Assembly (NCBI RefSeq): GCF_024700885.2 | Contig: NZ_CP117016.1 | Origin: Escherichia coli | GTDB taxonomy: Bacteria; Pseudomonadota; Gammaproteobacteria; Enterobacterales; Enterobacteriaceae | Strand: one strand, 5' to 3' | Length of the DNA: 64,000 nucleotides | Shown here: positions 3,718-48,124 of the stretch, one piece after another | Layout: each line of letters begins with the position of its first letter | How positions within the stretch are numbered: the first letter of the stretch is position 1 | The notes under the pieces: generated by a model | The model's input: the letters and a program-made list of their open reading frames with translations, nothing else | The model's database searches: none | What the model was told of the DNA's origin: nothing | Translations under genes and position numbers: made by a program

Positions 3718-5763
3718 TTATACGTTCAAGCCACGATGTTGCAGCATCGGCATAATCTGAGGTGCCTTACCGCGCCATTGTCGATACAGGCGTTCCAGAT
3801 CTTCGCTGTTACCTCTGGAAAGAATCGCCTCGCGAAAACGCCGCCCATTTTCACGCGTTAATCCGCCCTGCTCAACAAACCACTGGTAACCATCATCGGC
3901 CAACATTTGCGTCCACAGATAAGCGTAATAACCTGCGGCATATCCGCCACCAAAAATATGGGCGAAATAACTGCTGCGATAGCGTGGCGGTATAGCAGGA
4001 AGATCCATATTTTCCGCCACCAGCGCCCGCAATTCGAAATCATCGACATCCTGCATTGCTTCGTTTTCTTCCAGGCAATGCCAGCGCATATCGAGAAGTG
4101 CGGCGCTAAGCAGTTCGCTCATCTCATACCCTTTATTGAACAGGCTGGCATTACGCATTTTCTGTTGCAGTTCATCAGGCATTGCTGCCCCGCTCTGATA
4201 ATGCCGGGCGTAGCGAGCGAATACCTGCGGATGCGTTGCCCAGTGTTCGTTGATTTGCGACGGAAATTCGACAAAATCACGCGGCGTGTTGGTGCCGGAA
4301 AGCGTGGCATAACGCTGGCGGGCAAAGAGGCCGTGTAGCGTATGACCAAATTCATGGAATAAGGTTATGACATCATCCCAGAGTAACAACGCAGGCTCAC
4401 CGGCAGCGGGTTTCTGATAATTGCAGACGTTATAAATTACCGGATGCGTTTCATTCAGCGTTGATTGCTCAACAAAATTGCCCATCCATGCACCGCCGCT
4501 TTTTGAATCACGGGCGAAGAAATCACCGTAAAATAACGCCAGCCCCACGCCATTATGATCAAAAATTTCCCATACACGAACGTCAGGATGGTAGACAGGA
4601 ATATCAAAACGTTCGACAAACTTAATACCGAAGAGCTGATTCGCAGTCCAGAATACGCCTTCATTCAACACCGTGTTTAATTCGAAATAAGGCTTGAGCT
4701 GCGCTTCATCGAGATCGAATTTCTCACGTCTTACCTGCTCGGCATAAAATGCCCAGTCCCACGGCTGCGCGCTAAACCCGCCCTGCTGCTTATCGATAAC
4801 CGCCTGTATGGAGGCTAATTCATCGCTCGCACGTTGACGCGCCGCTGGAACAATTTCCCGCATAAAGTTGAGTGCTGCTTCTGGCGTTTTTGCCATCTGA
4901 TCGGCGATTTTCCATGCGGCATAATGAGGGAAACCAAGCAGTTTCGCCTGCTGCGCGCGGATCTCCACCAGACGTTGAATGATAGCGCGGGTATCATTGG
5001 CATCATTTTTTTCCGCTCGCGTCCAGCCCGCAGTGAACAGTTTTTCACGCGTCGCACGATCGCGCATTTCGGCAAGCGCCGGTTGTTGGGTGGTATTCAG
5101 CAGCGGAATCAGCCATTTGTTATCCAGACCTTTCTCGCGAGCCGCCTCTGCCGCCAGCGCAATCTCTTGCTCACTTATTCCTGCCAGCTGCGCGATATCG
5201 TTCACAACCAGACCGCCGGATTTATTTGCTGCCAGTAACCGCTGGTTAAACTGGCTGGTCAGGGTCGCAGCTTCTGTATTCAGTACTTTTAATTTTGCTT
5301 TATCAGCTTGCGCAAGTTTGGCTCCGGCAAGGACAAAACGTTGATGAATGACCTCCACCAGGCGGATGGATTCACTATCAAGCCCCAGGGATTCTCGGCG
5401 CTGCCAGACAGCATCTACCCGCGCGAATAATTCACCGTTCAGATAGATATCATTAGCCAGTTCCGCCAGTTCAGCGGAAAACTGTTCATCAAGACGCTGT
5501 AATTCATCATTGGTATGCGCCGCAGTCATCGCAAAAAAGACGCTGGTAACGCGGGTAAGTAATTCTCCGCTTTGTTCCAGTGCCAGAATAGTATTGTTGA
5601 AATCAGGCGTTTGCGGGTTAAGCGCGATGGCAGTAATTTCTGCCCGCTTTTGCAGCATTCCCTCATCGAATGCCGGGCGATAGTGATGATTGGAAATTTG
5701 ATCAAAATGGGGAGCCAGATACGGCAGTGTGCTTTGCACAAGGAAAGGATTCATTGTTGTCAT
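3718..5763 (-). CDS. dcp: Dipeptidyl carboxypeptidase II (M3 family)
   Basis: HEFGH zinc motif is present. The start was set at MTTMNPFLVQ (ATG 5763), giving 681 aa. Confidence 0.92.
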   Translation of the reverse strand: MTTMNPFLVQSTLPYLAPHFDQISNHHYRPAFDEGMLQKRAEITAIALNPQTPDFNNTILALEQSGELLTRVTSVFFAMTAAHTNDELQRLDEQFSAELAELANDIYLNGELFARVDAVWQRRESLGLDSESIRLVEVIHQRFVLAGAKLAQADKAKLKVLNTEAATLTSQFNQRLLAANKSGGLVVNDIAQLAGISEQEIALAAEAAREKGLDNKWLIPLLNTTQQPALAEMRDRATREKLFTAGWTRAEKNDANDTRAIIQRLVEIRAQQAKLLGFPHYAAWKIADQMAKTPEAALNFMREIVPAARQRASDELASIQAVIDKQQGGFSAQPWDWAFYAEQVRREKFDLDEAQLKPYFELNTVLNEGVFWTANQLFGIKFVERFDIPVYHPDVRVWEIFDHNGVGLALFYGDFFARDSKSGGAWMGNFVEQSTLNETHPVIYNVCNYQKPAAGEPALLLWDDVITLFHEFGHTLHGLFARQRYATLSGTNTPRDFVEFPSQINEHWATHPQVFARYARHYQSGAAMPDELQQKMRNASLFNKGYEMSELLSAALLDMRWHCLEENEAMQDVDDFELRALVAENMDLPAIPPRYRSSYFAHIFGGGYAAGYYAYLWTQMLADDGYQWFVEQGGLTRENGRRFREAILSRGNSEDLERLYRQWRGKAPQIMPMLQHRGLNV

Positions 5764-31415: not shown

Positions 31416-31826
31416 TGTCCTTCTCCTGCAAGAGAATTATTTTAATTTTCGCTTAATTCAGCGAAACCAAAGTAAAGTGGTCAAGCCCCGCGCATAGCGC
31501 AAGCTTAAGCAGAAGAAAGGACTAAAGCGCGTTGCGCCAGTGCTGCTCACCTACGAGCAAGATAGTGGATGAGGTACGAAGATGGGTAAATGTAGAAAAT
31601 AACGTCCTGAACAAATTGTCCATAATATTACAATTATCCGCAGTGTTGCTTCTCGTCATCGCGGATGATAATTGTCCTCGGTAGTTGAACACGCCTGATT
31701 TGTATCATAGCTTAAGAATTAACTCAAAATATTTTCACTTCTTTACCTGAGCGGTTTGATTTTCGTTATGATGACGGAGCGAAAAAGACATTATTATTAG
31801 CCAAGGAAGAAAAAACGGGGACAAGC

Positions 31827-31991
31827 ATGGCAAAGCCGATCATCACGCTCAATGGCCTAAAAATCGTCATTATGTTGGGAATGCTGGTCATTATTCTCTG
31901 CGGTATCCGTTTTGCCGCCGAGATCATCGTGCCGTTTATTCTCGCATTATTTATTGCTGTTATATATAACTTATTTCGCATAACACATTGA
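31827..31991 (+). pseudogene. tqsA: tqsA (AI-2 exporter) 5' fragment, truncated by island insertion
   Basis: [45 protein letters not shown] runs into island DNA (IYNLFRITH*). The continuation [11 protein letters not shown] resumes at 47227. Confidence 0.9.
31955..31963. repeat. att core copy (integrase-distal junction; I call it attL by window position)
   Basis: TGCTGTTAT, identical to 47218..47226. Confidence 0.85.
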
Positions 31992-32037
31992 TTTAATTAA
32001 ATAATTAACACCGCAAAAAGTGCCAAAAATCGCAAAA

Positions 32038-32060
32038 TGACTACACCAGTGACTACACCG
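32038..32060 (+). repeat. 23-bp arm repeat TGACTACACCAGTGACTACACCG (left arm)
   Basis: A perfect copy lies at 47068..47090 in the same orientation. It is internally a tandem GACTACACC x2. Similarity continues for about 10 more bp (TCG[G/T]TGCAC). Confidence 0.85.
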
Positions 32061-32077
32061 TTCGGTGCACTGTATGA

Positions 32078-32102
32078 AACAACGTGGAACAAATAGACAC
32101 AA
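32078..32102 (+). repeat. 10-bp-phased (A/C)ACAA array, left arm (3 units)
   Basis: AACAA at 32078 and 32088, CACAA at 32098. Confidence 0.7.
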
Positions 32103-32415
32103 GAAATATACAGGCGGATCATCTTTCCAGGGGGAAGCACACCAATTCATGAGGGGCGTTAATGTCGATATGGGGATCCCCACCTACCGGAATTTTTTTC
32201 CGGTTAAACGTTAATCAGGCTGGTGGGCTTTACCTGTTCGGTAGGTGTTATGATTATCGTAATACCTTTCCCCCAATGGGGTAAAAGCATCAACCGTAAC
32301 GAAAGTCGTTATGGTTGCCACTGATACCCCAAATTTGGGTATCACGAGTAAGCCCCAAAATCTGGGTGTTACTCTTACTACCCAAACTACGGGTAGTTTC
32401 CGTAGTTTCATGGTC

Positions 32416-39539: not shown

Positions 39540-39565
39540 GAACAACGTGGAACAACCACGAACAA
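39540..39565 (+). repeat. Three GAACAA units at exact 10-bp spacing upstream of the capsid operon
   Basis: GAACAA at 39540, 39550 and 39560. Confidence 0.8.
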
Positions 39566-39583
39566 ATAATTTACAAAACATGA

Positions 39584-39606
39584 CAAAAAGCCGGATTGCT
39601 CCGGCT
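39584..39606 (-). terminator. Rho-independent terminator ending the early/replication operon
   Basis: The minus strand reads agccggagcaatccggct + ttttgt, immediately after the stop at 39613. Confidence 0.7.
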
Positions 39607-40308: not shown

Positions 40309-40583
40309 GATTCCACCTCTCCGGTTTTAACGTTGATGGTTGTTACCTGTTCCGCTTCGGCAATCTCCCGCTCTGTCAGCGTGGCAAAATTTGCCGCCGT
40401 CGTGGTCATGAATGCGCTTATCAGTTTGGGATGTGCTTTCGCGTATCCTTCCCCCGCGTGGCGGTCTATCGTTCTGATTGCCACCTTTAAAGCGTGCTCT
40501 GTCATGTCTAACGCGCGATATTTCGGTTCTGTTCTGTCTCTGCGTTTTTTGAGTGATTTATTAAATTTCCCTGAAGTGTGCAT
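40305..40583 (-). CDS. Hypothetical protein (92 aa)
   Basis: ATG at 40583. Its stop overlaps the ssb start (ATGA). Confidence 0.5.
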   Translation of the reverse strand: MHTSGKFNKSLKKRRDRTEPKYRALDMTEHALKVAIRTIDRHAGEGYAKAHPKLISAFMTTTAANFATLTEREIAEAEQVTTINVKTGEVES

Positions 40584-40632
40584 ATTTATTTTTACCCCCT
40601 CGTTTAAAAAGTTTTGAGTTGTGCCTCCCCTT

Positions 40633-40855
40633 GTCTACCTTATCTACCTTAGTGGCCCTCATACCAGTAATGGCGCGGCTTTCAGCGGGGTAGAGTGCTT
40701 TTATCCACTATCTACCCCGTGTCTACCTCCCTGTCTGATTCAGGTAAAATCAGGTAGAGAGGGTAGATAGTGGGTAGACAGTAAAAAAAGGTTATCTACC
40801 TAACTTAATGCACTGAATTAAATGTATTTTTCTTTACTCAGGTAGACAGGGTAGA
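40633..40855. repeat. Iteron cluster / candidate island replication origin
   Basis: 11 copies of the hexamer GGTAGA/TCTACC. TCTACC starts at 40634, 40644, 40711, 40722 and 40795. GGTAGA starts at 40689, 40753, 40762, 40773, 40841 and 40850. They flank an AT-rich stretch (40801-40840) directly downstream of the primase stop. Confidence 0.75.
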
Positions 40856-40871
40856 CAGCAATTACAAAAAA

Positions 40872-42626
40872 TTATAAAAACGCGTCGCACTCGTCTGTTG
40901 TTATTGCGTTAGTCTGCGTTACTCCCTTAACTTTCCGCGTAATATATTCATGTCCGTAAACTTTCGCGGCTGGCTTCATAGCCTTGCCAAAGTCATTTAC
41001 GTTTAGCGGTTTGCTCCTGCCTGCGTACGCCATAAACGCCAGATAGACGCGGTAAAGGCTGTTTCTGGTCGTGTACTTCACTGAATCGCCACCGCCGCCC
41101 ATCATCAGGCCGCGTGCTTCCTCCAGAAAATTCAGGAACTGGCAAAACTCAATAACCGGATCCGTCTGTTGCTTTATTGCCAGAGCTTCATCACCGTCAC
41201 GCTGTTCCAGTAGTAAAGCCCGTGCCTTCTCAGGGTCGGTAAAGTTCGCCAGCAATCGGCGGATAATGACAGGGATTTCAGCCGCGATCTTTTCCGGTAG
41301 CTCCCTGTCTTTTTCGGCCTCACTGACGATATTGTCGAAACGGAAAATCACGCGACGACGTGCCACACCTCCGGCCCGTTCGGTGAATATCATCGGGTTA
41401 TTGTTGGTCGCCAGCACCACCGCCCTGATTACCGCCGTGAAACGCTTTTCGTATTTCGGGTTAATTTCCACGGGGTCACCGCCCGTGATTTTCTTGATGC
41501 CCGTTCCTTCGCCTGTATATTTCGGCTGGTCAGCCAGGACGATAAGACGACTCCCGACAACCTGCGCACGTCCACCAGCATCATCAAGCGATGTCATTTC
41601 AGCGCTTACCGTGTTCTGTTTCCCTGCCAGAAGGCTGGCTATGTGTGTGAATGTACTTTTACCGCTCCCGCCGTCTCCGGTGGCCTCAATAAACATCTGC
41701 CAGTCGTACCGGTTCGCCATAATCATGTACAGCGCGGCACATATACGCATCATCTTGCGCGGGTCTTTTCCGGCTGCGTGCTCAAGCCATTTATGAAAGT
41801 TTGGCGCGTTATCGCGGATGTTCTCCCCTGGTGCTGGTGGCGTGTACTCAATGCCGTTGTGCGTGGTGATCCAGTTCTCCGGCGTGTGCGGGGAAAATTC
41901 CCCCGTTTTCAGGTCAAGCGCACCATTGGCGAACGGCAACAAATCGCCGGACGGCTCGCCCATTGGTTCGGCAATAACTTTTAACGCTTCCACGGCGTTA
42001 TTGATTACGCGCTTGCTGAAAGTGGCCCTGTGCTCTGAATAGATCGCCACCATTTCGCGGCTAAGTTCCATTGTGCTGACCGGACACCATACCCCGCCGC
42101 GCCATACGTGAACGATTTCACTTTCAGGATGTACGCAAACGCCATCAAAGCGATCGGCAAGCAGTTGCGCGCGCTCACTGTCCGCCATCTGCGAAAGTTG
42201 CGCCTTTTGCTTTACCGGAAGCTCAATGACCAGACCATCAGAAAGATTCTGGCGCTCACGGGCCAGATATTCGCGCCAGTTCTCCACCTTCTGACCGTGC
42301 ATACCATCAGGGTAAAAATTTGCATCCTGTACGCCTGCCGCCGCCAGCTTCTGACCAATCGCCTTTATCATTACTGGCGCAAGATATCCGGCCCTGAATA
42401 TGCGCACGGATTTTCTGCCTTCCGGCACAATTTGCAGCTTATCCAGTTCGGATAACTGCTGCTCCCCAAGCCACACAGGAGGCTCATTATCTCCGGCCAT
42501 ACGCGCGTCATGTTCCTGCCATTGTTTTGCGTGTGACCAGGCATCACTACCCGCAAAAATAATGACTTCTGTTTCTTTGTGTTTTATGCCGCGTGACTGC
42601 TGTTTTACGTTCGGTGCCAGTTTCAT
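40872..42626 (-). CDS. P4-family primase/helicase (pri-rep)
   Basis: 584 aa with Walker A GDGGSGKST and Walker B LIVLADQP. The C-terminal architecture is D5/P4-alpha-like. Confidence 0.82.
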   Translation of the reverse strand: MKLAPNVKQQSRGIKHKETEVIIFAGSDAWSHAKQWQEHDARMAGDNEPPVWLGEQQLSELDKLQIVPEGRKSVRIFRAGYLAPVMIKAIGQKLAAAGVQDANFYPDGMHGQKVENWREYLARERQNLSDGLVIELPVKQKAQLSQMADSERAQLLADRFDGVCVHPESEIVHVWRGGVWCPVSTMELSREMVAIYSEHRATFSKRVINNAVEALKVIAEPMGEPSGDLLPFANGALDLKTGEFSPHTPENWITTHNGIEYTPPAPGENIRDNAPNFHKWLEHAAGKDPRKMMRICAALYMIMANRYDWQMFIEATGDGGSGKSTFTHIASLLAGKQNTVSAEMTSLDDAGGRAQVVGSRLIVLADQPKYTGEGTGIKKITGGDPVEINPKYEKRFTAVIRAVVLATNNNPMIFTERAGGVARRRVIFRFDNIVSEAEKDRELPEKIAAEIPVIIRRLLANFTDPEKARALLLEQRDGDEALAIKQQTDPVIEFCQFLNFLEEARGLMMGGGGDSVKYTTRNSLYRVYLAFMAYAGRSKPLNVNDFGKAMKPAAKVYGHEYITRKVKGVTQTNAITTDECDAFL

Positions 42627-42922
42627 TTTTTACCCCTGAATCCGTTAATCATGGTTTTCAGCTTCTGGATGTTTGCCCGTGCCCTGGCGTTGCTGGTGGA
42701 CACGTTATGCGGCGCGGTCTGTACCAGAGAAAAATCACGCCGGAACTGATAAACAGGCATCACGCAATCATATTCGTAACCTTCACGGCGGTAGGTTACG
42801 CGCCGTTCTTCCACGCCCTTAATCATTACCGTGCCGCCGTACTGGTCGCGGTAAATATCGCCGCGCGTAAATTTAGGGTGAGTGTTGCCACTGGCAGTTA
42901 AGCCAGAATATTTAAGTTTCAT
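42623..42922 (-). CDS. Hypothetical protein (99 aa)
   Basis: SD ggaga. ATGA overlap with the primase start. Confidence 0.55.
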   Translation of the reverse strand: MKLKYSGLTASGNTHPKFTRGDIYRDQYGGTVMIKGVEERRVTYRREGYEYDCVMPVYQFRRDFSLVQTAPHNVSTSNARARANIQKLKTMINGFRGKK

Positions 42923-42927
42923 TATTT

Positions 42928-43161
42928 TTATTCTCCGGTGTGCTGTTCTTTATATCTGTCGTGCAATAGATCTATTTCTTGCAGTTCCATTATTACAGGC
43001 TCAAGAAGCGTTATTAATGCCGTGGCAATTCTTGATTTTTGTTTGTCGCGTTCATTGTCGCCAAGTGTTTCAAGCCATATGCGCAATATTTCCAGCATGT
43101 TTTCACTGTGAGAAAGTGCAAGAAATGCGCGGTCTATTGTTTCGTGGTAAATATCACGCAT
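42928..43161 (-). CDS. Hypothetical protein (77 aa)
   Basis: ATG with SD gagga. Part of the packed operon. Confidence 0.5.
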   Translation of the reverse strand: MRDIYHETIDRAFLALSHSENMLEILRIWLETLGDNERDKQKSRIATALITLLEPVIMELQEIDLLHDRYKEQHTGE

Positions 43162-43387
43162 GGCTTACATCCTCAGGAAATTTTCTTCTATAACGCGCCT
43201 CTGCCACATATTCCGCATAATCGGCGGCGATATTCAGTACATCAAGCCCCGTTGATTTATATTCTCTCGTGGAAAGTAAGAAAAAAGCCGCTCTAATAAG
43301 TTCTGGCATTGACGAAAGCGCATCAGCCGCATCATCAGGAACGCCGGAAAATTCCTGTTTCAGGGAATTAAAACGATCATCACGCAT
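43154..43387 (-). CDS. Hypothetical protein (77 aa)
   Basis: ATG with SD gggggg. It has 8-nt overlaps with both neighbouring genes. Confidence 0.5.
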   Translation of the reverse strand: MRDDRFNSLKQEFSGVPDDAADALSSMPELIRAAFFLLSTREYKSTGLDVLNIAADYAEYVAEARYRRKFPEDVSHA

Positions 43388-43745
43388 GTTTACCCCCCTG
43401 AATGACCTGATAACCGCAACTGGTCAGCAACTCGATAAATTCCGGCAGTGTGCCGAAACAGCAATCATCACGCAGCCGTTCACAGGATACCTCGACGCCG
43501 TTTTCGTAGTGACTCACCATACATCCGGTAAAATGCAGATCATCATCGTGATGGCTCGTTGACGGCTTAATCAGTCGCGCACGTTCCGCCAGTTCCAGCA
43601 ATGCTTCAACGCTTCCGGCAATTGCACCATCCGGCAGGTGATAATTACGCACTATGCGCCCGTTCTCCACATTGACCAGCAACTGCCCGGTAAATTTCTC
43701 ATCAAACTGAATGCTGTTAAGGTCAGAAATTGACAGATTATGCAT
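43380..43745 (-). CDS. Hypothetical protein (121 aa)
   Basis: The start was moved to MHNLSISDL (ATG 43745), preceded by a strong SD aggagg. Confidence 0.55.
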   Translation of the reverse strand: MHNLSISDLNSIQFDEKFTGQLLVNVENGRIVRNYHLPDGAIAGSVEALLELAERARLIKPSTSHHDDDLHFTGCMVSHYENGVEVSCERLRDDCCFGTLPEFIELLTSCGYQVIQGGKHA

Positions 43746-43962
43746 GGTGCACCTCCTGCACATCAGCCATGATAATTTTTCCGGCCTTATCCAGTGCCTG
43801 ATCGGCTTTTAGCTGCACAAATGCTAAATAATGGAAGATGCATTCTGATTCTCTGGCTGCGTGTTTATGCGCCCTGTCAGCAATAACAGAAATATCAATA
43901 AGCGCGTGCATCAGCGTAGTGAGCGCGGCGGCGGCTGCGTCCGGTGTGGTTTTATTGCACAT
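43738..43962 (-). CDS. Hypothetical protein (74 aa)
   Basis: The start was moved to MCNKTTPD (ATG 43962), preceded by SD ggagggg. Confidence 0.5.
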   Translation of the reverse strand: MCNKTTPDAAAAALTTLMHALIDISVIADRAHKHAARESECIFHYLAFVQLKADQALDKAGKIIMADVQEVHHA

Positions 43963-44182
43963 GTACCCCTCCGCATTTTTTTTCGTTAGAAATAAGCGTT
44001 CTTCTTTCCTGTTCATCGCTCAGGAATACGCAGACCTCACCGCTAAGGCGTTTAAGTAAGCCGATGATTGCCCCTGATTCGCTGTCGGTCATCATGCCAG
44101 GGTAATCCTCTGCCAGTGCGCAAATAACTTCGATTTGGTGGGCGCGTTCTGCTGCCTGTTGTAGTGTGATTTCCTGGCTCAT
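43952..44182 (-). CDS. Hypothetical protein (76 aa)
   Basis: ATGA overlap with the icd-like stop. Confidence 0.5.
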   Translation of the reverse strand: MSQEITLQQAAERAHQIEVICALAEDYPGMMTDSESGAIIGLLKRLSGEVCVFLSDEQERRTLISNEKKCGGVHVQ

Positions 44183-44379
44183 AAGCCTACCCCCTGACGA
44201 ATACGGGCAGCAAATACCATCACGCAGCCAGCCGGAGATTGCTGGCGTGCTTCCTGTTCGCTGGTGGCCTCAATGGTAATCACGCGCGGTTGTGCCGTGC
44301 TCAGGGCGATAAAACGCCAGATGTATTTATTCAGGTTGTGCGAGTCCCGCCCTTGCGGGTGTGTGGTATGATTTCTCAT
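44179..44379 (-). CDS. Icd-like host cell-division inhibitor (66 aa)
   Basis: This is the C-terminal 66 codons of the 340-aa track ORF. ATG at 44379 with SD gaggt. YIWRFIAL...ATSEQEARQ...VFAARIR resembles Icd-like proteins of P4-type elements, from memory. Confidence 0.55.
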   Translation of the reverse strand: MRNHTTHPQGRDSHNLNKYIWRFIALSTAQPRVITIEATSEQEARQQSPAGCVMVFAARIRQGVGL

Positions 44380-44475
44380 AGCTACCTCGATACTTTCGCT
44401 ATCGTTGGTGGTTAGAAGCCCGGTTAGTGTTAGCGCACTGCCGGGTTTCGTCGTTTCTGCACCTTGCGCCAACAA

Positions 44476-44529
44476 GGTGTTGAACACCAATTTAAACCCA
44501 GGTGTTAAACACGTCAAGTGTTGAACACT
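44476..44529. promoter_or_regulatory. Three operator-like 13-bp dyads (GTGTT-N-AACAC) in a divergent promoter region
   Basis: GGTGTTGAACACC 44476-88, GGTGTTAAACACG 44501-13, AGTGTTGAACACT 44517-29. A putative rightward promoter, TTGAAC(44521)-17 nt-CATACT(44544), overlaps the third dyad. Confidence 0.65.
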
Positions 44530-44578
44530 TATTTTTTTTCCTGCATACTGCATTTGTTTTTTATGAGGGGTACACCAC

Positions 44579-44758
44579 ATGGCGACAAAAGCGGTAAACG
44601 CAAAATCACAAACCGTTGCGGCAAGGGTTCCGCATGAAGTTATGAACAATGTTGAGGCGGTAAAAATGCCTGGCGAAAGTACGGGGCAATTTGTTACTGC
44701 GGCATTAAAACGAGAAGTTGAATATCGCCAGCGGCGCAAGGCCAAAGAACCAGAGTAA
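44579..44758 (+). CDS. Ribbon-helix-helix (Arc/CopG-like) DNA-binding protein, 59 aa, candidate island repressor
   Basis: Hand-translated as MATKAVNAKSQTVAARVPHEVMNNVEAVKMPGESTGQFVTAALKREVEYRQRRKAKEPE*. SD gagggg. It has a beta-strand-helix-helix pattern. It is below the ORF-track cutoff and is one of only two plus-strand genes in the island. Confidence 0.5.
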   Translation: MATKAVNAKSQTVAARVPHEVMNNVEAVKMPGESTGQFVTAALKREVEYRQRRKAKEPE

Positions 44759-44800
44759 TCACCATCAGCGCCGTGGTGTAAGGTATTACGGCGCATTGCT

Positions 44801-44989
44801 ATGCAGGACAACACAATGACCGATAAAGAATTGACCAAAACATTATCACCGGCACGGAAAAGACGGCGCAGAAAGATAGAGCATGAATCAGAAAGATTCG
44901 CGCCATGTGCTTTTGCCCTTGAGCAATTCCTTAAAGAGTACAGGGAAAAGCGCTCATTGCAGGTATGGCAACGAACTGAACCAGACTGA
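44801..44989 (+). CDS. Hypothetical basic protein (57-62 aa)
   Basis: Downstream of the RHH gene and before the plus-strand terminator. Contains an ARKRRRRK stretch. The start may be 44816. Confidence 0.4.
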   Translation: MQDNTMTDKELTKTLSPARKRRRRKIEHESERFAPCAFALEQFLKEYREKRSLQVWQRTEPD

Positions 44990-45084
44990 TTGCATTGCCC
45001 ACCAGCCTGATAACGGCTATCATCCCCGTGCTTATGTTTGGGATCACACACACAAACGGCGCAGCGGGTTATCTGTTCAGAAAG

Positions 45085-45112
45085 GCGGCTCCATTTCGGG
45101 GCCGCTTTTTTT
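45085..45112 (+). terminator. Rho-independent terminator of the rightward RHH unit
   Basis: Stem gcggctcc/ggggccgc (8 bp, one G-U pair) followed by 7 T. Confidence 0.7.
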
Positions 45113-45258
45113 ATACCTGAAAAACCCCAATTTTGTTGTTTTTCAGTTTCACCAGGGCGAACGAATCCCCGCCCACGTTCTGGCGTATATTCAATCTTCA
45201 TGGTTATAGCTCTGTGTTCAGATGATTGATGTGTGGCGGCTGCGTGCCGCCAGCGTGA

Positions 45259-45447
45259 TTAATGAACTGCCTTGCAGCTATCCTTCCAGGCCAGAACCTC
45301 GGATAAAGACCAGCCAACGGAACGACCGCCAAGTTTACGACGTGATGGGAATTGTCCGGCCTTTTCCAGGCGGTAGCGACACGTACGGCTAAGGCCGGTT
45401 AGTTTTTCGCATTCTTTTTCACGTATAAACCGATCAGTGCTTAACAC
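45259..45447 (-). CDS. alpA: AlpA-family regulator / excisionase-type HTH
   Basis: FIREKECEKLTGLSRTCRYRLEKAGQFPSRRKLGGRSVGWSLSEVLAW is the typical AlpA/Phage_AlpA motif. The favoured start is the GTG at 45447, 5 nt after SD aagggggg. The track ORF extends to a TTG at 45528. Confidence 0.8.
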   Translation of the reverse strand: MLSTDRFIREKECEKLTGLSRTCRYRLEKAGQFPSRRKLGGRSVGWSLSEVLAWKDSCKAVH

Positions 45448-45720
45448 TATTGCCCCCCTTTCGTTTCTTAAAGAGTCATCAGGTGTCTTATTGTGTCGTA
45501 TTGTTCCCGCTAGAGTGATGAATGGCAAATACTGAGGATGTATGATTTACAGAAAATGAAACAGTAAGAATAAAATTTTTTAAATTCATGTTAATACAAA
45601 GGCATAAAATATTGTTCCATGCCTTTTTTCTCGCTCTTTAAAGAGTGATTCGCTAGTGTACAAAAAACCAGTAACGCATTAAAAATCAGCTACTTATAAA
45701 TCCGTACGCTTTTTCGCCTC

Positions 45721-45765
45721 TTGTTCGTAGTTGTTCCACATTGTTGCTCATTGTTGCACGTTGTA
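45721..45765 (-). repeat. Five TTGTT/TTGTA units at exact 10-bp spacing (inverse orientation of the GAACAA arrays), int-alpA intergenic
   Basis: Units start at 45721, 45731, 45741, 45751 and 45761. Confidence 0.8.
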
Positions 45766-45812
45766 TCTGTTCGCATATCCAGTATGCGCATACTGAAAAA
45801 ACACGAAAAAAA

Positions 45813-47042
45813 TTATTTTCTTCTGGCTACGGGTAGCGTGGTTACGTTTTCATGTGTTCCCGCCAGTATCCCTAACCGCTCCGTCCACATATCCAGCGCA
45901 TTGCGTTTCGCATCCAGATAACGGGAATGATTATAAACTCGCTGCATTCCTGGCATCTGGTGGCCTGTAAGCTGCTCCACGACATGCGGATCAACGCCTA
46001 AATCGTTCAGCATGGTTGTAAAGGTGCGCCGGATGTCATGCAGTGACCAGTGAGGGTGATTAAGCCTCCTGTACGCTAATCTTCCATACTGCGATACGCT
46101 GGCCTCCTGTTTCACTTCCCCCAGCAATAAGCCCGTGTGCCTGTTCTGCTCCACCAGCTGCGTGACGAACGGCAGGATCGCTTCCGGTATGGGCCGGAAT
46201 ATTGCGACCTTCGTTTTGCTGTGCTCCTTCGGAACGGTCCATAGCATTTCCGTAAAATCCCACTCCCCGATCTCCGATAACCTCAGTTCTACCGTTCTGG
46301 CTCCGAAGACAATCAGGAGGCGGATTAACGCGACGTAGTAAGGGGAGAATATTTTTTTGTCCAGTGCCTGCAATAATTCGCCAAGTTCTTTGTTACTTAA
46401 GACACGTTCGCTTATATCCGGTTTTTTCCCAACGTCCGCAACGTTCAGATCGTCCAGAACGTTGCTGATTGCATAGCGCCGCCTACGGCAGAACTTAAGC
46501 GCCTGTTTGCACGCCTGTAGCACGAATCCGGCAGTAACAGGCGTTCGCTTTGCCACCTGGTCAAAACAGGCCAGCCAGTGCCGTAGCTCGCATTTATCCA
46601 GCGGCATAGCACCAATCTGCTGTATTACGTGATTATTAAGTCGCCTTTTCAGGGCGATATAATCCACGCGGTTTTCCTTTACGTAATACTCAAGCCAGTA
46701 GGTGAGCGCATCGCCAACCGTTACGGGCTTTAACGCTTCCTGTACGGTGTAATTCATCTCATGACGTGGATTTTTCCCCTCAGCCAGCCATGTGCGACAC
46801 TGTGCGGCTTTTTCCCTGGCTGCTTTCAGGCTCAGATCAGGATAACTTCCCAGCTTAATGCGTTCGGGTCGTGTCTCCCTTCCCGTTCCGGCCCTGTATG
46901 TGAAATACCAGGTCAATTTCCCTGATGTTAAATATTTCACGCTCAGGTTTCCGCCATCACTATAAAACGTGTTTTTCTCCGCTGGCTTACCATGAAGTTT
47001 CCTTAGCAAGGTATCGCTCAGTTTGTTCATTGCTCTGCTCAC
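45813..47042 (-). CDS. int: P4-type tyrosine integrase (DUF4102 arm-binding N-terminus + catalytic core)
   Basis: 409 aa, with either a GTG at 47042 or an ATG at 47030 (MNKLSDTLLRKL). The N-terminus is GKLTWYFTYR...LGSYPDLSLKAAR. Catalytic motifs HDIRRT and Y in VYNHSRY are present. Confidence 0.9.
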   Translation of the reverse strand: MSRAMNKLSDTLLRKLHGKPAEKNTFYSDGGNLSVKYLTSGKLTWYFTYRAGTGRETRPERIKLGSYPDLSLKAAREKAAQCRTWLAEGKNPRHEMNYTVQEALKPVTVGDALTYWLEYYVKENRVDYIALKRRLNNHVIQQIGAMPLDKCELRHWLACFDQVAKRTPVTAGFVLQACKQALKFCRRRRYAISNVLDDLNVADVGKKPDISERVLSNKELGELLQALDKKIFSPYYVALIRLLIVFGARTVELRLSEIGEWDFTEMLWTVPKEHSKTKVAIFRPIPEAILPFVTQLVEQNRHTGLLLGEVKQEASVSQYGRLAYRRLNHPHWSLHDIRRTFTTMLNDLGVDPHVVEQLTGHQMPGMQRVYNHSRYLDAKRNALDMWTERLGILAGTHENVTTLPVARRK

Positions 47043-47067
47043 GTTTTACCCCCTCTTTACGAAAAAG

Positions 47068-47090
47068 TGACTACACCAGTGACTACACCG
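47068..47090 (+). repeat. 23-bp arm repeat TGACTACACCAGTGACTACACCG (right arm)
   Basis: Perfect copy of 32038..32060, in the same orientation. Confidence 0.85.
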
Positions 47091-47108
47091 ATCGTTGCAC
47101 AAAGGGCT

Positions 47109-47132
47109 ACAACGTGAAACAAGCTGGAACAA
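47109..47132 (+). repeat. 10-bp-phased ACAA array, right arm (3 units, a 4th at +12)
   Basis: ACAA at 47109, 47119 and 47129, and another at 47141. Confidence 0.7.
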
Positions 47133-47217
47133 GGAAAATCACAAATCTATTGATAATCAAAAACATAATGCACAGCCTGAAACATTATGAAACAGCAAAA
47201 AACACTAAATGATAAAA

Positions 47218-47226
47218 TGCTGTTAT
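47218..47226. repeat. att core copy (integrase-proximal junction; I call it attR by window position)
   Basis: TGCTGTTAT, identical to 31955..31963. Confidence 0.85.
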
Positions 47227-48124
47227 TCTTAACCCGCTGGTGCAACACATGGTCCGCTGGCGTGTGCCGCGTGTACTGGCAGTGTCGATTTTGATGACCA
47301 TCATCGTGATGGCGATGGTGTTGCTGTTAGCTTATCTGGGTTCCGCACTCAACGAGTTGACGCGGACGTTACCGCAATATCGCAACTCTATTATGACGCC
47401 GCTGCAAGCTCTTGAACCGTTGTTGCAACGCGTAGGGATTGACGTCTCAGTTGACCAACTGGCGCATTACATTGATCCGAACGCGGCGATGACGTTGCTC
47501 ACCAACTTATTGACGCAGTTATCTAATGCCATGTCATCAATCTTTTTATTGCTGCTGACGGTGCTGTTTATGCTGCTCGAAGTGCCACAATTGCCCGGAA
47601 AATTTCAGCAAATGATGGCGCGTCCGGTTGAAGGGATGGCGGCGATTCAGCGTGCGATTGACAGTGTGTCTCATTATCTGGTGCTGAAAACAGCCATCAG
47701 CATCATCACCGGCCTGGTCGCCTGGGCGATGCTCGCCGCACTCGATGTTCGCTTCGCTTTTGTCTGGGGATTGCTGGCCTTTGCGCTTAATTACATCCCG
47801 AATATTGGTTCAGTTCTCGCGGCAATCCCCCCTATTGCTCAGGTACTGGTGTTTAATGGCTTCTACGAAGCGTTGCTGGTGCTGGCGGGATATCTGCTGA
47901 TTAATCTGGTCTTCGGCAATATTCTGGAGCCACGCATCATGGGGCGTGGGCTGGGGCTTTCCACATTGGTGGTATTTTTGTCGTTGATTTTTTGGGGATG
48001 GTTGTTAGGACCGGTGGGTATGCTGCTTTCCGTGCCGTTGACAATTATTGTCAAAATTGCGCTTGAACAAACAGCGGGAGGTCAAAGCATCGCCGTTCTG
48101 TTAAGCGATCTCAATAAAGAGTGA
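47218..48124 (+). pseudogene. tqsA: tqsA 3' fragment (codons ~44-344)
   Basis: The frame continues (A)[21 protein letters not shown]...LSDLNKE*. An in-frame TAA lies at 47213-15 just upstream, so there is no island-provided N-terminus. Confidence 0.9.

Follow-up and report, generated by a model that had tools for sequence, protein, structure and literature searches.

A Kil/Icd-led early operon of small cassette genes in a capsid-forming phage satellite of Escherichia coli, and a predicted SymR-related antisense RNA at its head

Seven small genes head the early operon of a P4-related satellite

We analyzed a run of seven small open reading frames (ORF1 to ORF7) that lies directly upstream of a DNA primase gene on the minus strand of a 64,000-nucleotide (nt) stretch of the Escherichia coli contig NZ_CP117016.1 (hereafter the window, to which all unprefixed coordinates refer). 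The seven ORFs are real genes and form the promoter-proximal part of an early operon, that of a phage satellite which makes its own capsids. We give a probability of roughly 55% to the overall scheme proposed for this operon, in which the early genes of a capsid-forming phage-inducible chromosomal island (cf-PICI) are led by a gene of the Kil/Icd family and would be gated both by an antisense RNA and by operators at their promoter.

The original prediction described seven co-oriented, overlapping small ORFs ahead of the primase, each with its own Shine-Dalgarno motif, and in all of this it was correct. The first cistron, ORF1 (44379–44179, minus strand as for all genes of the chain; 66 residues, isoelectric point (pI) 10.7), shares a 4-nt overlap, ATGA, with ORF2 (44182–43952; 76 residues, pI 4.8), which in turn overlaps ORF3 (43962–43738; 74 residues, pI 6.3) by 11 nt. 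ORF3 and ORF4 (43745–43380; 121 residues, acidic) overlap by 8 nt, ATGCATAA, and two more 8-nt overlaps, both ATGCGTGA, join ORF4 to ORF5 (43387–43154; 77 residues, acidic, predicted helical) and ORF5 to ORF6 (43161–42928; 77 residues, acidic). A 5-nt gap (42923–42927) separates ORF6 from ORF7 (42922–42623; 99 residues, pI 10.2), and a second ATGA overlap of 4 nt links ORF7 to the primase gene (42626–40872; 584 residues), which would be the last translationally coupled member of the chain. Shine-Dalgarno-like motifs lie 5–10 nt 5' of every start; from ORF1 to ORF7 these are GAGG, GGGGG, GGAGG, AGGAGG, GGGGGG, GAGGA and GGAG.

RefSeq has coding sequences at all seven positions in a 100% identical genome, that of E. 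coli C7, and all seven products fall into PHROG families with E-values of 1e-28 to 1e-49. Ratios of nonsynonymous to synonymous polymorphism (pN/pS), pooled for distinct alleles against one reference allele and hence not independent of one another, ranged from 0.05 to 0.42 across ORF1 to ORF7, indicating purifying selection on every one of them; chance ORFs are ruled out by this selection and conservation. In 58 non-identical related loci we counted 72 ATGA junctions, 61 ATGCGTGA junctions, 53 of the 11-nt overlaps and 54 of the 5-nt gaps, and the junction types were constant regardless of which genes a locus contained, which argues for selection on contiguity. With each start codon overlapping or adjoining the stop of the cistron before it, the ORFs are probably translated as a single unit, in which control of ORF1 would be control of everything down to the primase.

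The island that carries the operon is about 15.3 kb long and splits tqsA next to pntAB, as read from the RefSeq annotation of the identical region of E. coli C7. Its first half runs from int through alpA, a divergent YlcI/YnfO family gene, the seven ORFs, the primase gene, a further small ORF and the genes for SSB and PerC, and its second half comprises genes for the major capsid protein, prohead protease, portal, head closure protein, head-tail connector, an HNH protein, TerS and TerL; the same annotation contains no tail genes. cf-PICIs have been defined as islands of ~15 kb with int, alpA and a replicase together with their own set of capsid and packaging genes, and no tail genes (bioRxiv 10.1101/2022.09.08.507074), and by its annotated gene content this island is a P4-related cf-PICI. 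The alpA gene (45456–45259, minus strand), of the PICI activator/excisionase family (PF05930, 61.6 bits), encodes a protein identical to the AlpA of the prototype cf-PICI, EcCIEDL933 (WP_000953272.1 in both records), the induction of which requires alpA (bioRxiv 10.1101/2022.09.08.507074).

ORF1 is a Kil/Icd homolog at the end of an eta-like frame

That the first ORF is Icd-like and sits in a P4-type setting had been proposed before, and profile searches bear out both points. ORF1 scored 69.9 bits (E = 1.4e-19) against the NCBIfam model NF033153 (phage_ICD_like; curated cut-off 25 bits), against which P4 Kil (the 65-residue kil ORF taken directly from the P4 sequence) and P1 Icd, run as controls, scored 76.1 and 52.6 bits, respectively. 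In addition, an hhalign comparison between an alignment of ORF1 homologs and P1 Icd gave a probability of 96% (E = 2e-9, 37% identity over 43 columns). By these profile scores ORF1 is a true member of the Icd/Kil family; its pN/pS was 0.24. At the other end of the chain, the primase, named 'DNA primase family protein' by RefSeq, matched P4 alpha with a phmmer E-value of 3e-110. Icd is noted in the P1 record to inhibit division or kill the host when expressed, and P4 Kil arrests division or kills its host (PMC10111431); by analogy, ORF1 would be toxic to the host.

The ATG start codon of ORF1 (44379–44377) is preceded, 5 nt upstream, by its GAGG Shine-Dalgarno (44388–44385). RefSeq starts the first coding sequence further out in E. 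coli C7 (44580, giving 133 residues), a start that we disfavor because the sigma-70 promoter and the operators described below would then fall inside the coding sequence. The 66-residue start is backed by the initial methionine and the N-terminus conserved in homologs, and the commonest database forms of the family (66–68 residues) are in line with it. The label 'transcriptional repressor' that PHROG attaches to ORF1 was set aside: it is most likely inherited from the annotation of a 137-residue 'cI' ORF in the P4 record, an origin that we put forward without a check of PHROG membership, and P4 cI is known to be an RNA (PMC10111431).

ORF1 also forms the 3' end of a far longer open frame of 340 codons (45201–44179, minus strand), which starts 57 nt after alpA. 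The 274 codons of this frame that lie 5' of the ORF1 ATG (45201–44380, minus strand, in frame with ORF1) contain no stop codon, versus 14 and 20 stops in the other two frames, an openness with a P-value of about 9e-7 that was matched in none of 20,000 shuffles. Of 44 distinct related loci, 20 have the frame open all the way to alpA. In the window it overlaps two conserved opposite-strand ORFs, the YlcI/YnfO family gene (44579–44758, plus strand) and a 62-residue ORF (44801–44989, plus strand), and it stays open although the YlcI gene is itself under strong purifying selection. We call it eta-like after the eta/kil gene pair of P4, where premature termination is averted by translating the long frame from a promoter further upstream (PMC10111431). 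The 62-residue ORF matches phrog_21027, and RefSeq is inconsistent over this region, which it annotates with the 133-residue Icd-like coding sequence plus an 'incomplete' Icd-like pseudogene.

A predicted antisense RNA over the ORF1 start is related to SymR

We predict a cis-antisense RNA, which we term as-kil (44377–44469, plus strand), complementary to the start codon, Shine-Dalgarno and leader of ORF1 and laid out, by prediction, as a 5' hairpin, a GC-rich 3' hairpin and a U-rich tail. Twelve loci of other Enterobacterales genera conserve the ~90 nt directly 5' of the ORF1 ATG as an element with two hairpins and compensatory changes, and the as-kil fold had a z-score of −4.1. When 13 loci from 12 genera were aligned, the antisense-strand fold comprised 21 pairs at −25.6 kcal/mol, with 98.5% of cells paired and 10 compensatory pairs, a result reached in none of 500 shuffles. 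A structured leader working on the sense strand is disfavored, as that fold had fewer pairs (16), a weaker energy (−14.8 kcal/mol) and recurrent A-C mismatches at positions that are G-U on the antisense strand. Across 44 distinct sequences the 3' hairpin (helix 2) was 96% paired and had compensatory changes at 9 of its 13 pairs; about 70 cells were G-U, which on the sense strand would read A-C.

A covariance model of as-kil built from 14 sequences gave a single match in the 64-kb window (44377–44469, plus strand; 83 bits) and at least one match in each kil-bearing related locus that was searched, always antisense to kil and in some loci twice; it had no match in P4. Nine loci (L032, L056, L060, L062, L067, L069, L077, L091 and L094) have two kil-like genes in tandem, each with the antisense-RNA motif. 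A putative extended −10 element for as-kil, TGGTATGAT, read from the sequence at 44364–44372 (plus strand), would have transcription begin at about 44379, and loci of the same N-terminal class (L002, L008, L009 and L070) retain this motif.

The Rfam SymR model (RF01809) matched as-kil over its full length (1–77) with 33.3 bits (E = 0.0021), below its gathering score of 61 bits, and the as-kil model in turn matched K-12 SymR with 35.2 bits (E = 8e-8), the next best match having 12.7 bits. In the window the matches of the two models (44377/44380–44452/44469, plus strand) abut or overlap the ORF1 ATG and cover the GAGG at 44388–44385. Judged by these reciprocal scores as-kil is related to SymR, yet by threshold it stands outside the Rfam SymR family. 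Our literature search found no description of a kil-leader antisense RNA, and no Rfam family matched it at threshold. We rejected an immunity RNA of the C4/isrK type at this locus: neither C4 (RF01695) nor isrK (RF01394) matched window positions 40500–47300 at E ≤ 1 or any of 12 related loci at gathering score, while the P4 positive control scored both (74.9 and 60.8 bits, respectively).

The predicted structured cis-antisense RNA is conserved over the translation-initiation region of ORF1, as in type I toxin-antitoxin systems, and from this position as-kil, if expressed as its sequence suggests, would repress ORF1. The symE 5' untranslated region (UTR) and the kil leader also share sequence blocks (gtgcgccaacac versus gtgcgctaacac, and ctaatcac versus ctaaccac), and the K-12 symR/symE counterpart of window positions 44377–44469 is found at 3836–3929 of our K-12 reference locus (L101). 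The sequence kinship suggests that the regulatory cassette of SymE/SymR came from the early operon of a satellite, or that it passed in the opposite direction.

The operon promoter carries operator-like repeats and faces a candidate repressor gene

A consensus scan identified a sigma-70-like promoter for the operon (44517–44489, minus strand; TTGACG, 17 nt, TAAATT), with a predicted transcription start near 44482. It is located inside the eta-like frame, and related loci have the same layout. Three operator-like 13-bp repeats, A(G/A)GTGTT(G/A)AACAC, were found in a repeat search at 44475–44487, 44500–44512 and 44516–44528, such that one lies upstream of the −35, one between the −35 and −10, and one over +1. 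The divergent YlcI/YnfO family gene (44579–44758, plus strand) encodes 59 residues, scored 59.7 bits against NF041551 and had a pN/pS of 0.02 relative to its counterpart in the L017 locus. A gene of this family lies upstream of kil in six of 12 loci of other genera and, in our by-eye reading of other genera, the operator repeat sequence varies from locus to locus together with the divergent regulator. YlcI is a candidate repressor of the operon. In Edwardsiella hoshinae (L002, 5631–5801) YlcI is 100% identical to that of E. coli over 57 residues and the adjacent Kil-like protein 55% identical, which indicates a recent cross-genus recombination breakpoint inside the regulatory region.

ORF2 to ORF6 are island-restricted proteins exchanged as fixed-order cassettes

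ORF2 to ORF6 are small accessory proteins restricted to these islands and swapped among them as cassettes in a fixed order. They are acidic or near-neutral (pI 4.8–6.3), and the two genes that flank them encode basic proteins (pI above 10 for both ORF1 and ORF7). We surveyed 60 non-identical Kil-to-DUF4222 regions from IMG/VR and found the order 1-(2)-3-(4)-5-6-7 to be invariant, with ORF5 and ORF6 each present in 55 regions, ORF3 in 53, ORF2 in 18 and ORF4 in 15, and with ORF1 and ORF7 alone in some islands. ORF3, ORF5, ORF6 and ORF7 are thus near-core and ORF2 and ORF4 optional, and the alleles of the cassette genes recombine freely between neighbors.

The individual families differ in breadth and constraint. 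ORF2 belongs to phrog_1478 (E = 3e-28) and is 52% identical (E = 2e-21) to a 63-residue protein of a sister locus, L070; ORF3 belongs to phrog_5146 (E = 1e-44), its alleles being 30–100% identical across regions with pN/pS of 0.30–0.38. ORF4, of phrog_340, is the product of an internal tandem duplication of a ~45-residue unit (a β-hairpin plus a helix; N-half versus C-half E = 6e-5) and is strongly conserved (pN/pS 0.05–0.08). It occurs in Cedecea and Pectobacterium loci, and beyond Escherichia and its close relatives only ORF4 and ORF7 recur. There are natural ORF4-ORF5 fusions of 196 residues, and ORF4 domains are also naturally fused to AntA, DUF4222 and Icd-like sequences. ORF5 falls into phrog_2512/24341 (E = 2e-49; pN/pS 0.09). 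ORF6, of phrog_2196 (E = 8e-42; pN/pS 0.42), is a very narrow family: an exhaustive search of 1.84 billion representatives found nine clusters only and no informative fusions, and its L070 relative, an 80-residue protein, is 31% identical (E = 6e-9).

Searches with ORF2 to ORF6 against Pfam and NCBIfam gave sub-threshold noise only, sequence searches of PDB chains with ORF2, ORF4, ORF6 and ORF7 gave nothing meaningful, and PADLOC-DB 2.0 had no family at E ≤ 1 for any of ORF1 to ORF7, YlcI, the 62-residue ORF or a 92-residue ORF. Our best guess is that ORF2 to ORF6 are protein-binding modulators of host or phage targets.

The window junctions at 43738–43745, 43380–43387 and 43154–43161 have in common a cassette-boundary motif, (A/G)TGC(G/A)T(G/A)A, which occurs 75 times in the 58 loci and is also found at the kil/epsilon junction of P4 (L014, 8168–8175). 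At this motif the upstream protein ends in '-HA' ('-RA' in P4 Kil) and the next one starts with 'MR(D/N)' or 'MHN'. Such a conserved boundary linker may have a dual role in translational coupling and in recombinational exchange of cassettes.

Parts of the block are carried by 1820 of 5426 complete E. coli genomes and at least 80% of it by 121, which shows the block to be mosaic. When 50,697 phage records were searched with the DNA of the block nothing matched, and tblastn of ORF1 in phage records found a single 16.5-kb record described as an 'induced prophage'. As no bona fide phage record was matched, the block appears to be satellite-specific and not phage-borne.

ORF7 is a DUF4222 protein adjacent to exchangeable replicases

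The earlier view that ORF1 alone was recognizable does not hold, since besides the PHROG memberships of all seven proteins ORF7 is a full-length match to the Pfam model DUF4222 (PF13973; 85.7 bits, E = 1.6e-24, gathering cut-off 27 bits). The AlphaFold2 model of its core (residues 20–70), with a predicted local distance difference test (pLDDT) of about 90, is a five-stranded barrel of the SH3/Tudor/KOW type followed by a basic helix. Near-identical DUF4222 alleles are found, via the same ATGA junction, before unrelated replicases (the 584-residue primase, a RepA helicase of about 466 residues, or a DUF927 protein), making a replicase-specific partnership unlikely. In Enterobacter the DUF4222 gene lies upstream of kil. 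Between the primase gene and the next ORF there is a near-perfect inverted repeat with arms of ~27 bp (40702–40776), which surfaced through a spurious mir-4716 match and could be a terminator or part of a replication origin.

Relation to known systems

The left operon of P4 is in several respects the same arrangement: it has a strong Shine-Dalgarno ahead of a Kil-family first cistron (65–66 residues), a long in-frame eta-type frame that starts after an alpA/vis homolog, a constitutive-looking promoter within that frame, and a chain of small ORFs with 8-nt (A/G)TGCGT(A/G)A-type overlaps that ends in an alpha-type primase. The P4 order is kil/eta - epsilon - orf151 - orf106 - alpha, and its overlapping junctions (cI ORF/epsilon and epsilon/orf151) are 8 nt each. 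However, ORF2 to ORF7 have no P4 homologs and the island, unlike P4, has its own capsid and terminase genes. In phmmer searches of ORF2 to ORF7 against P4 proteins nothing was significant (best E-value 0.015 in an 11-protein database), by which we rejected epsilon, orf151 and orf106 as homologs. P4 also relies on CI immunity RNAs (C4 and isrK), where the window has a predicted cis-antisense RNA and a predicted protein-operator system.

The immI region of P1 (c4 RNA - icd - ant1/ant2) has a homologous first gene and a small RNA that masks the icd ribosome-binding site, as predicted here for ORF1. According to the P1 record icd is required for ant expression, the downstream genes being dependent on icd translation, the sites of C4 RNA lie over the icd ribosome-binding site, and the icd/ant1 junction is ATGA. 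Unlike as-kil, which would be antisense and fully complementary, C4 comes from the same strand and has short target sites, and icd is followed by one antirepressor, whereas six small ORFs and the primase follow ORF1. The SymE/SymR pair shares with what is predicted for the window an antisense RNA of ~77–90 nt that runs from the target start codon over the Shine-Dalgarno and the 5' UTR, two hairpins, and the blocks UUAG and, at the apex, GUGUU(A/G)GCGCAC; SymR overlaps the symE ribosome-binding site and start codon and blocks translation (PMC4147584). The differences are that the predicted target here is an Icd/Kil gene heading a long operon and not the 113-residue SymE (AbrB-fold), and that YlcI-type operators are found at the promoter here in place of the LexA control there.

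A published phenotype appears to belong to an operon of the same type. In E. coli ECOR61 cells die in response to orf24, an accessory protein of a phage (Silas et al., bioRxiv 10.1101/2023.04.06.535777), and suppressor transposon insertions hit an Icd-like gene and the two genes next to it, 186 and 192 nt long; reconstitution needed all six linked genes including the primase, and the Icd-like protein was judged the likely effector (same source). The same study reported that P22 Abc1 triggers death via a P4 prophage, with insertions in alpA, an Icd-like gene and the primase gene (bioRxiv 10.1101/2023.04.06.535777). Like the window, the ECOR61 locus, which is prophage-encoded and goes under the name 'superinfection exclusion / PCD', has an Icd-like gene, tightly overlapping small ORFs and then a DNA primase. 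The order in EcCIEDL933 is alpA, an Icd-like gene (65 residues), genes of 186, 192 and 243 nt, DUF4222 and primase; its 186- and 192-nt genes match those of ECOR61 in size and position, the 192-nt gene belongs to the ORF2 family, and the operon as a whole has ORF2-, ORF6- and ORF7-family genes. The L070 block is 94% identical in DNA to EcCIEDL933 and carries the same genes of 61, 63 and 80 residues, its DUF4222 protein and primase being 96% and 90% identical to those of the window. From gene sizes, order and annotation we infer that the ECOR61 locus (contig QOYT01000045.1) is a PICI early operon of this family. As matched through EcCIEDL933 it differs from the window, which lacks the 61-residue gene and adds ORF3, ORF4 and ORF5. 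The ECOR61 authors described neither a PICI early operon nor an antisense RNA.

Gram-negative PICIs have been described to have a dynamic 'Bro zone' between the int/alpA and replication modules, with immunity RNAs and domain-swapping proteins (PMC10111431). The fusions of ORF4 domains to AntA, DUF4222 and Icd-like sequences resemble this; however, the block has no Bro-N, AntA or KilA-N domain by Pfam, and its predicted RNA is not of the C4/isrK type.

Proposed mechanism and alternatives

In the scheme that we favor, the chain would be silent in a resident island, with YlcI bound to the operators and the antisense RNA covering the ribosome-binding site of ORF1. An untranslated ORF1 would leave the message downstream uncoupled and exposed to polarity, the cistrons being overlapping, such that ORF1 would license translation of the whole chain. 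On induction, transcripts from alpA would be translated through the eta-like frame, and this translation would clear the antisense block away, as has been suggested for P4 eta. Synthesis of the Kil/Icd-like protein would then coincide with that of the accessory proteins and the primase, leading to host arrest and island replication, and a phage product that triggered the operon without productive transfer would cause an outcome resembling abortive infection.

Several points weigh against this scheme. The eta-like frame is broken in 24 of the 44 loci. As each ORF has a Shine-Dalgarno motif, independent initiation is possible, and the coupling is read from geometry alone. as-kil, its promoter and its terminator are predictions from sequence; a convincing −10 was seen in one locus class only, and a terminator scan did not flag the 3' hairpin. 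No informative homologs of ORF2 to ORF6 were found in family, PDB or defense-system libraries. The AlphaFold2 model of a natural ORF4-ORF5 fusion, built on a shallow alignment, was poor (pLDDT 50) and unusable for a fold search, and at this low confidence suggests two β-hairpin-plus-helix units followed by three helices. The ECOR61 link rests on gene sizes, order and annotation and not on ECOR61 sequence, and the reconstituted ECOR61 effect was described as muted (bioRxiv 10.1101/2023.04.06.535777). EcCIEDL933 does not reduce the reproduction of its helpers, HK106 and HK446 being unharmed (bioRxiv 10.1101/2022.09.08.507074), and thus a toxic or abortive outcome is not general.

Other roles for the cassette genes were considered. 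The original prediction held that helper interference, anti-repressor sensing or host takeover is typical of this position, and it singled out a block of helper capsid assembly or packaging that would leave tails free. For P4 the general statement is borne out by epsilon, a helper-directed factor that bears the annotation 'helper derepression protein' and occupies the slot. A capsid or packaging block by one or more of ORF2 to ORF7 would be in keeping with the common interference of satellites with their helpers, with the report that the cf-PICI KpCIDSM30104 blocks its inducing phage (bioRxiv 10.1101/2025.02.11.637232), and with the small, acidic nature that these proteins share with many inhibitors. 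We found this claim unsupported, as no homology to known interference proteins was detected, EcCIEDL933, with homologs of ORF2, ORF6 and ORF7, leaves helper titer and plaquing unreduced, and it is not evident why a cf-PICI, which builds capsids and terminase for itself, should need to free tails. Known interference genes (P4 sid and psu, and those of the PICI rpp/cpm type) moreover lie in late or packaging modules and not before the primase. Electron microscopy of a tail lysate shows excess free HK022 tails, and wild-type HK022, once induced, is reported to overproduce tails (bioRxiv 10.1101/2025.02.11.637232). We consider a capsid or packaging block very unlikely, the least probable of the four roles considered here. 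Derepression of the helper, i.e., the role of P4 epsilon, ranks highest among them, although we still think it unlikely. Here the acidic proteins would bind prophage or island repressors and so switch on the lysis and tail genes of the helper, or else the island. Epsilon occupies the same slot as the second cistron after kil, sister islands have AntA/AntB or BRO-N antirepressor genes between alpA and kil, the C-terminal repeat of ORF4 is fused to an AntA domain in one protein (P0053), and the zone has been described as a domain-swapping Bro network (PMC10111431). Against this, there is no sequence similarity to epsilon, orf151 or orf106, PICIs are described as helper-induced and not the reverse (bioRxiv 10.1101/2022.09.08.507074), and the fusion proteins are rare, single-member clusters that may be frameshift or assembly products.

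A role in counter-defense, with ORF2 to ORF6 as early inhibitors of host restriction or immunity that aid establishment in new strains and species, seems to us a little less probable than derepression. Two points speak against it: none of the known inhibitors (Ocr, ArdA, Ral and others) showed homology, albeit in libraries poor in anti-defense families, and the fixed order and near-core status of ORF3, ORF5 and ORF6 (53–55 of 60 regions) suggest a function intrinsic to the island and not one of accessories tuned to particular hosts. Conversely, the genes are small, acidic and promoter-proximal, with a presence/absence mosaic and allele shuffling resembling phage accessory regions, and the cassette families are confined to islands. 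These traits also resemble those of plasmid leading regions. cf-PICIs, in addition, move between species (bioRxiv 10.1101/2025.02.11.637232). The remaining possibility, that the chain and especially ORF7 encodes origin-binding, helicase-loading or primase-assisting factors, we judge improbable, somewhat more so than counter-defense. The tight coupling to the replicase, to which DUF4222 is always adjacent, the basic ORF7 with a Tudor/KOW-like fold typical of polymerase- or nucleic-acid-binding domains, and the need for all six genes including the primase in ECOR61 would all fit such a role; however, near-identical DUF4222 alleles precede the unrelated primase, RepA helicase and DUF927 replicases, ORF2 and ORF4 are dispensable in most islands, some of which have ORF1 and ORF7 only, and Enterobacter has DUF4222 upstream of kil.

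Wider implications

The finding is not categorically new, since P4 and P1 already exemplify the operon type and a published phenotype probably belongs to one relative. What is new is the cassette set, the division into near-core and optional members, the predicted antisense RNA and its kinship to SymR; the antisense RNA, the operators, the eta-like frame and the phenotype already published for an operon apparently of this type go beyond the original prediction. cf-PICIs are recently recognized, widespread satellites that move between species on borrowed tails, and for the region downstream of alpA a 2025 preprint on them notes just a variable gene 'of unknown function'. Our analysis ties their alpA-to-replicase genes to the classical Kil/Icd paradigm of P4 and P1, links them to the unexplained phage-triggered cell-death locus of ECOR61, and offers a concrete prediction of how they are controlled, in which an antisense RNA related to SymR acts together with a set of operators and a read-through frame of the eta type. 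If true, the switch would explain how these islands are silent and yet fire on phage cues, and SymR, so far an orphan, would gain a large family and an evolutionary origin.

We further speculate, tentatively and with less belief than we place in the scheme above, that satellites of a very common enterobacterial family switch their early operons through a class of cis-antisense RNAs not described before, which are homologous to SymR; parts of the block are matched in about one in three complete E. coli genomes. The Kil-to-primase operon would then be an oversized type I toxin-antitoxin-like switch for induction or abortive infection, the chromosomal SymE/SymR pair its domesticated remnant, and ORF2 to ORF6 a reservoir of new effectors with host or phage targets, for counter-defense or for manipulation of the helper.

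Other features of the island

At each end of the island there is one copy of an imperfect 76-nt direct repeat (32034–32109 and 47064–47139; the two are 76% identical). Both copies include a tandem GTGACTACACC motif and are probably att-flanking arm-type integrase sites. Beyond them are the pieces of tqsA, a 5' fragment at about 31815–31958 and the 3' part at 47219–48124. The int-alpA RNA of Rfam (RF02996) was not detected in the window; in several related islands of other genera it is located just 3' of the integrase gene (L003 3153–3218, L004 2863–2928, L008 2433–2498 and L011 7869–7935). Repeats of the AACAACGTGGAACAA type are found in the perC-capsid intergenic region (39541–39585) and near both island ends (32078–32112 and 47108–47142), and these could be sites for a regulator or a recombination-directionality factor, upstream of the packaging operon.

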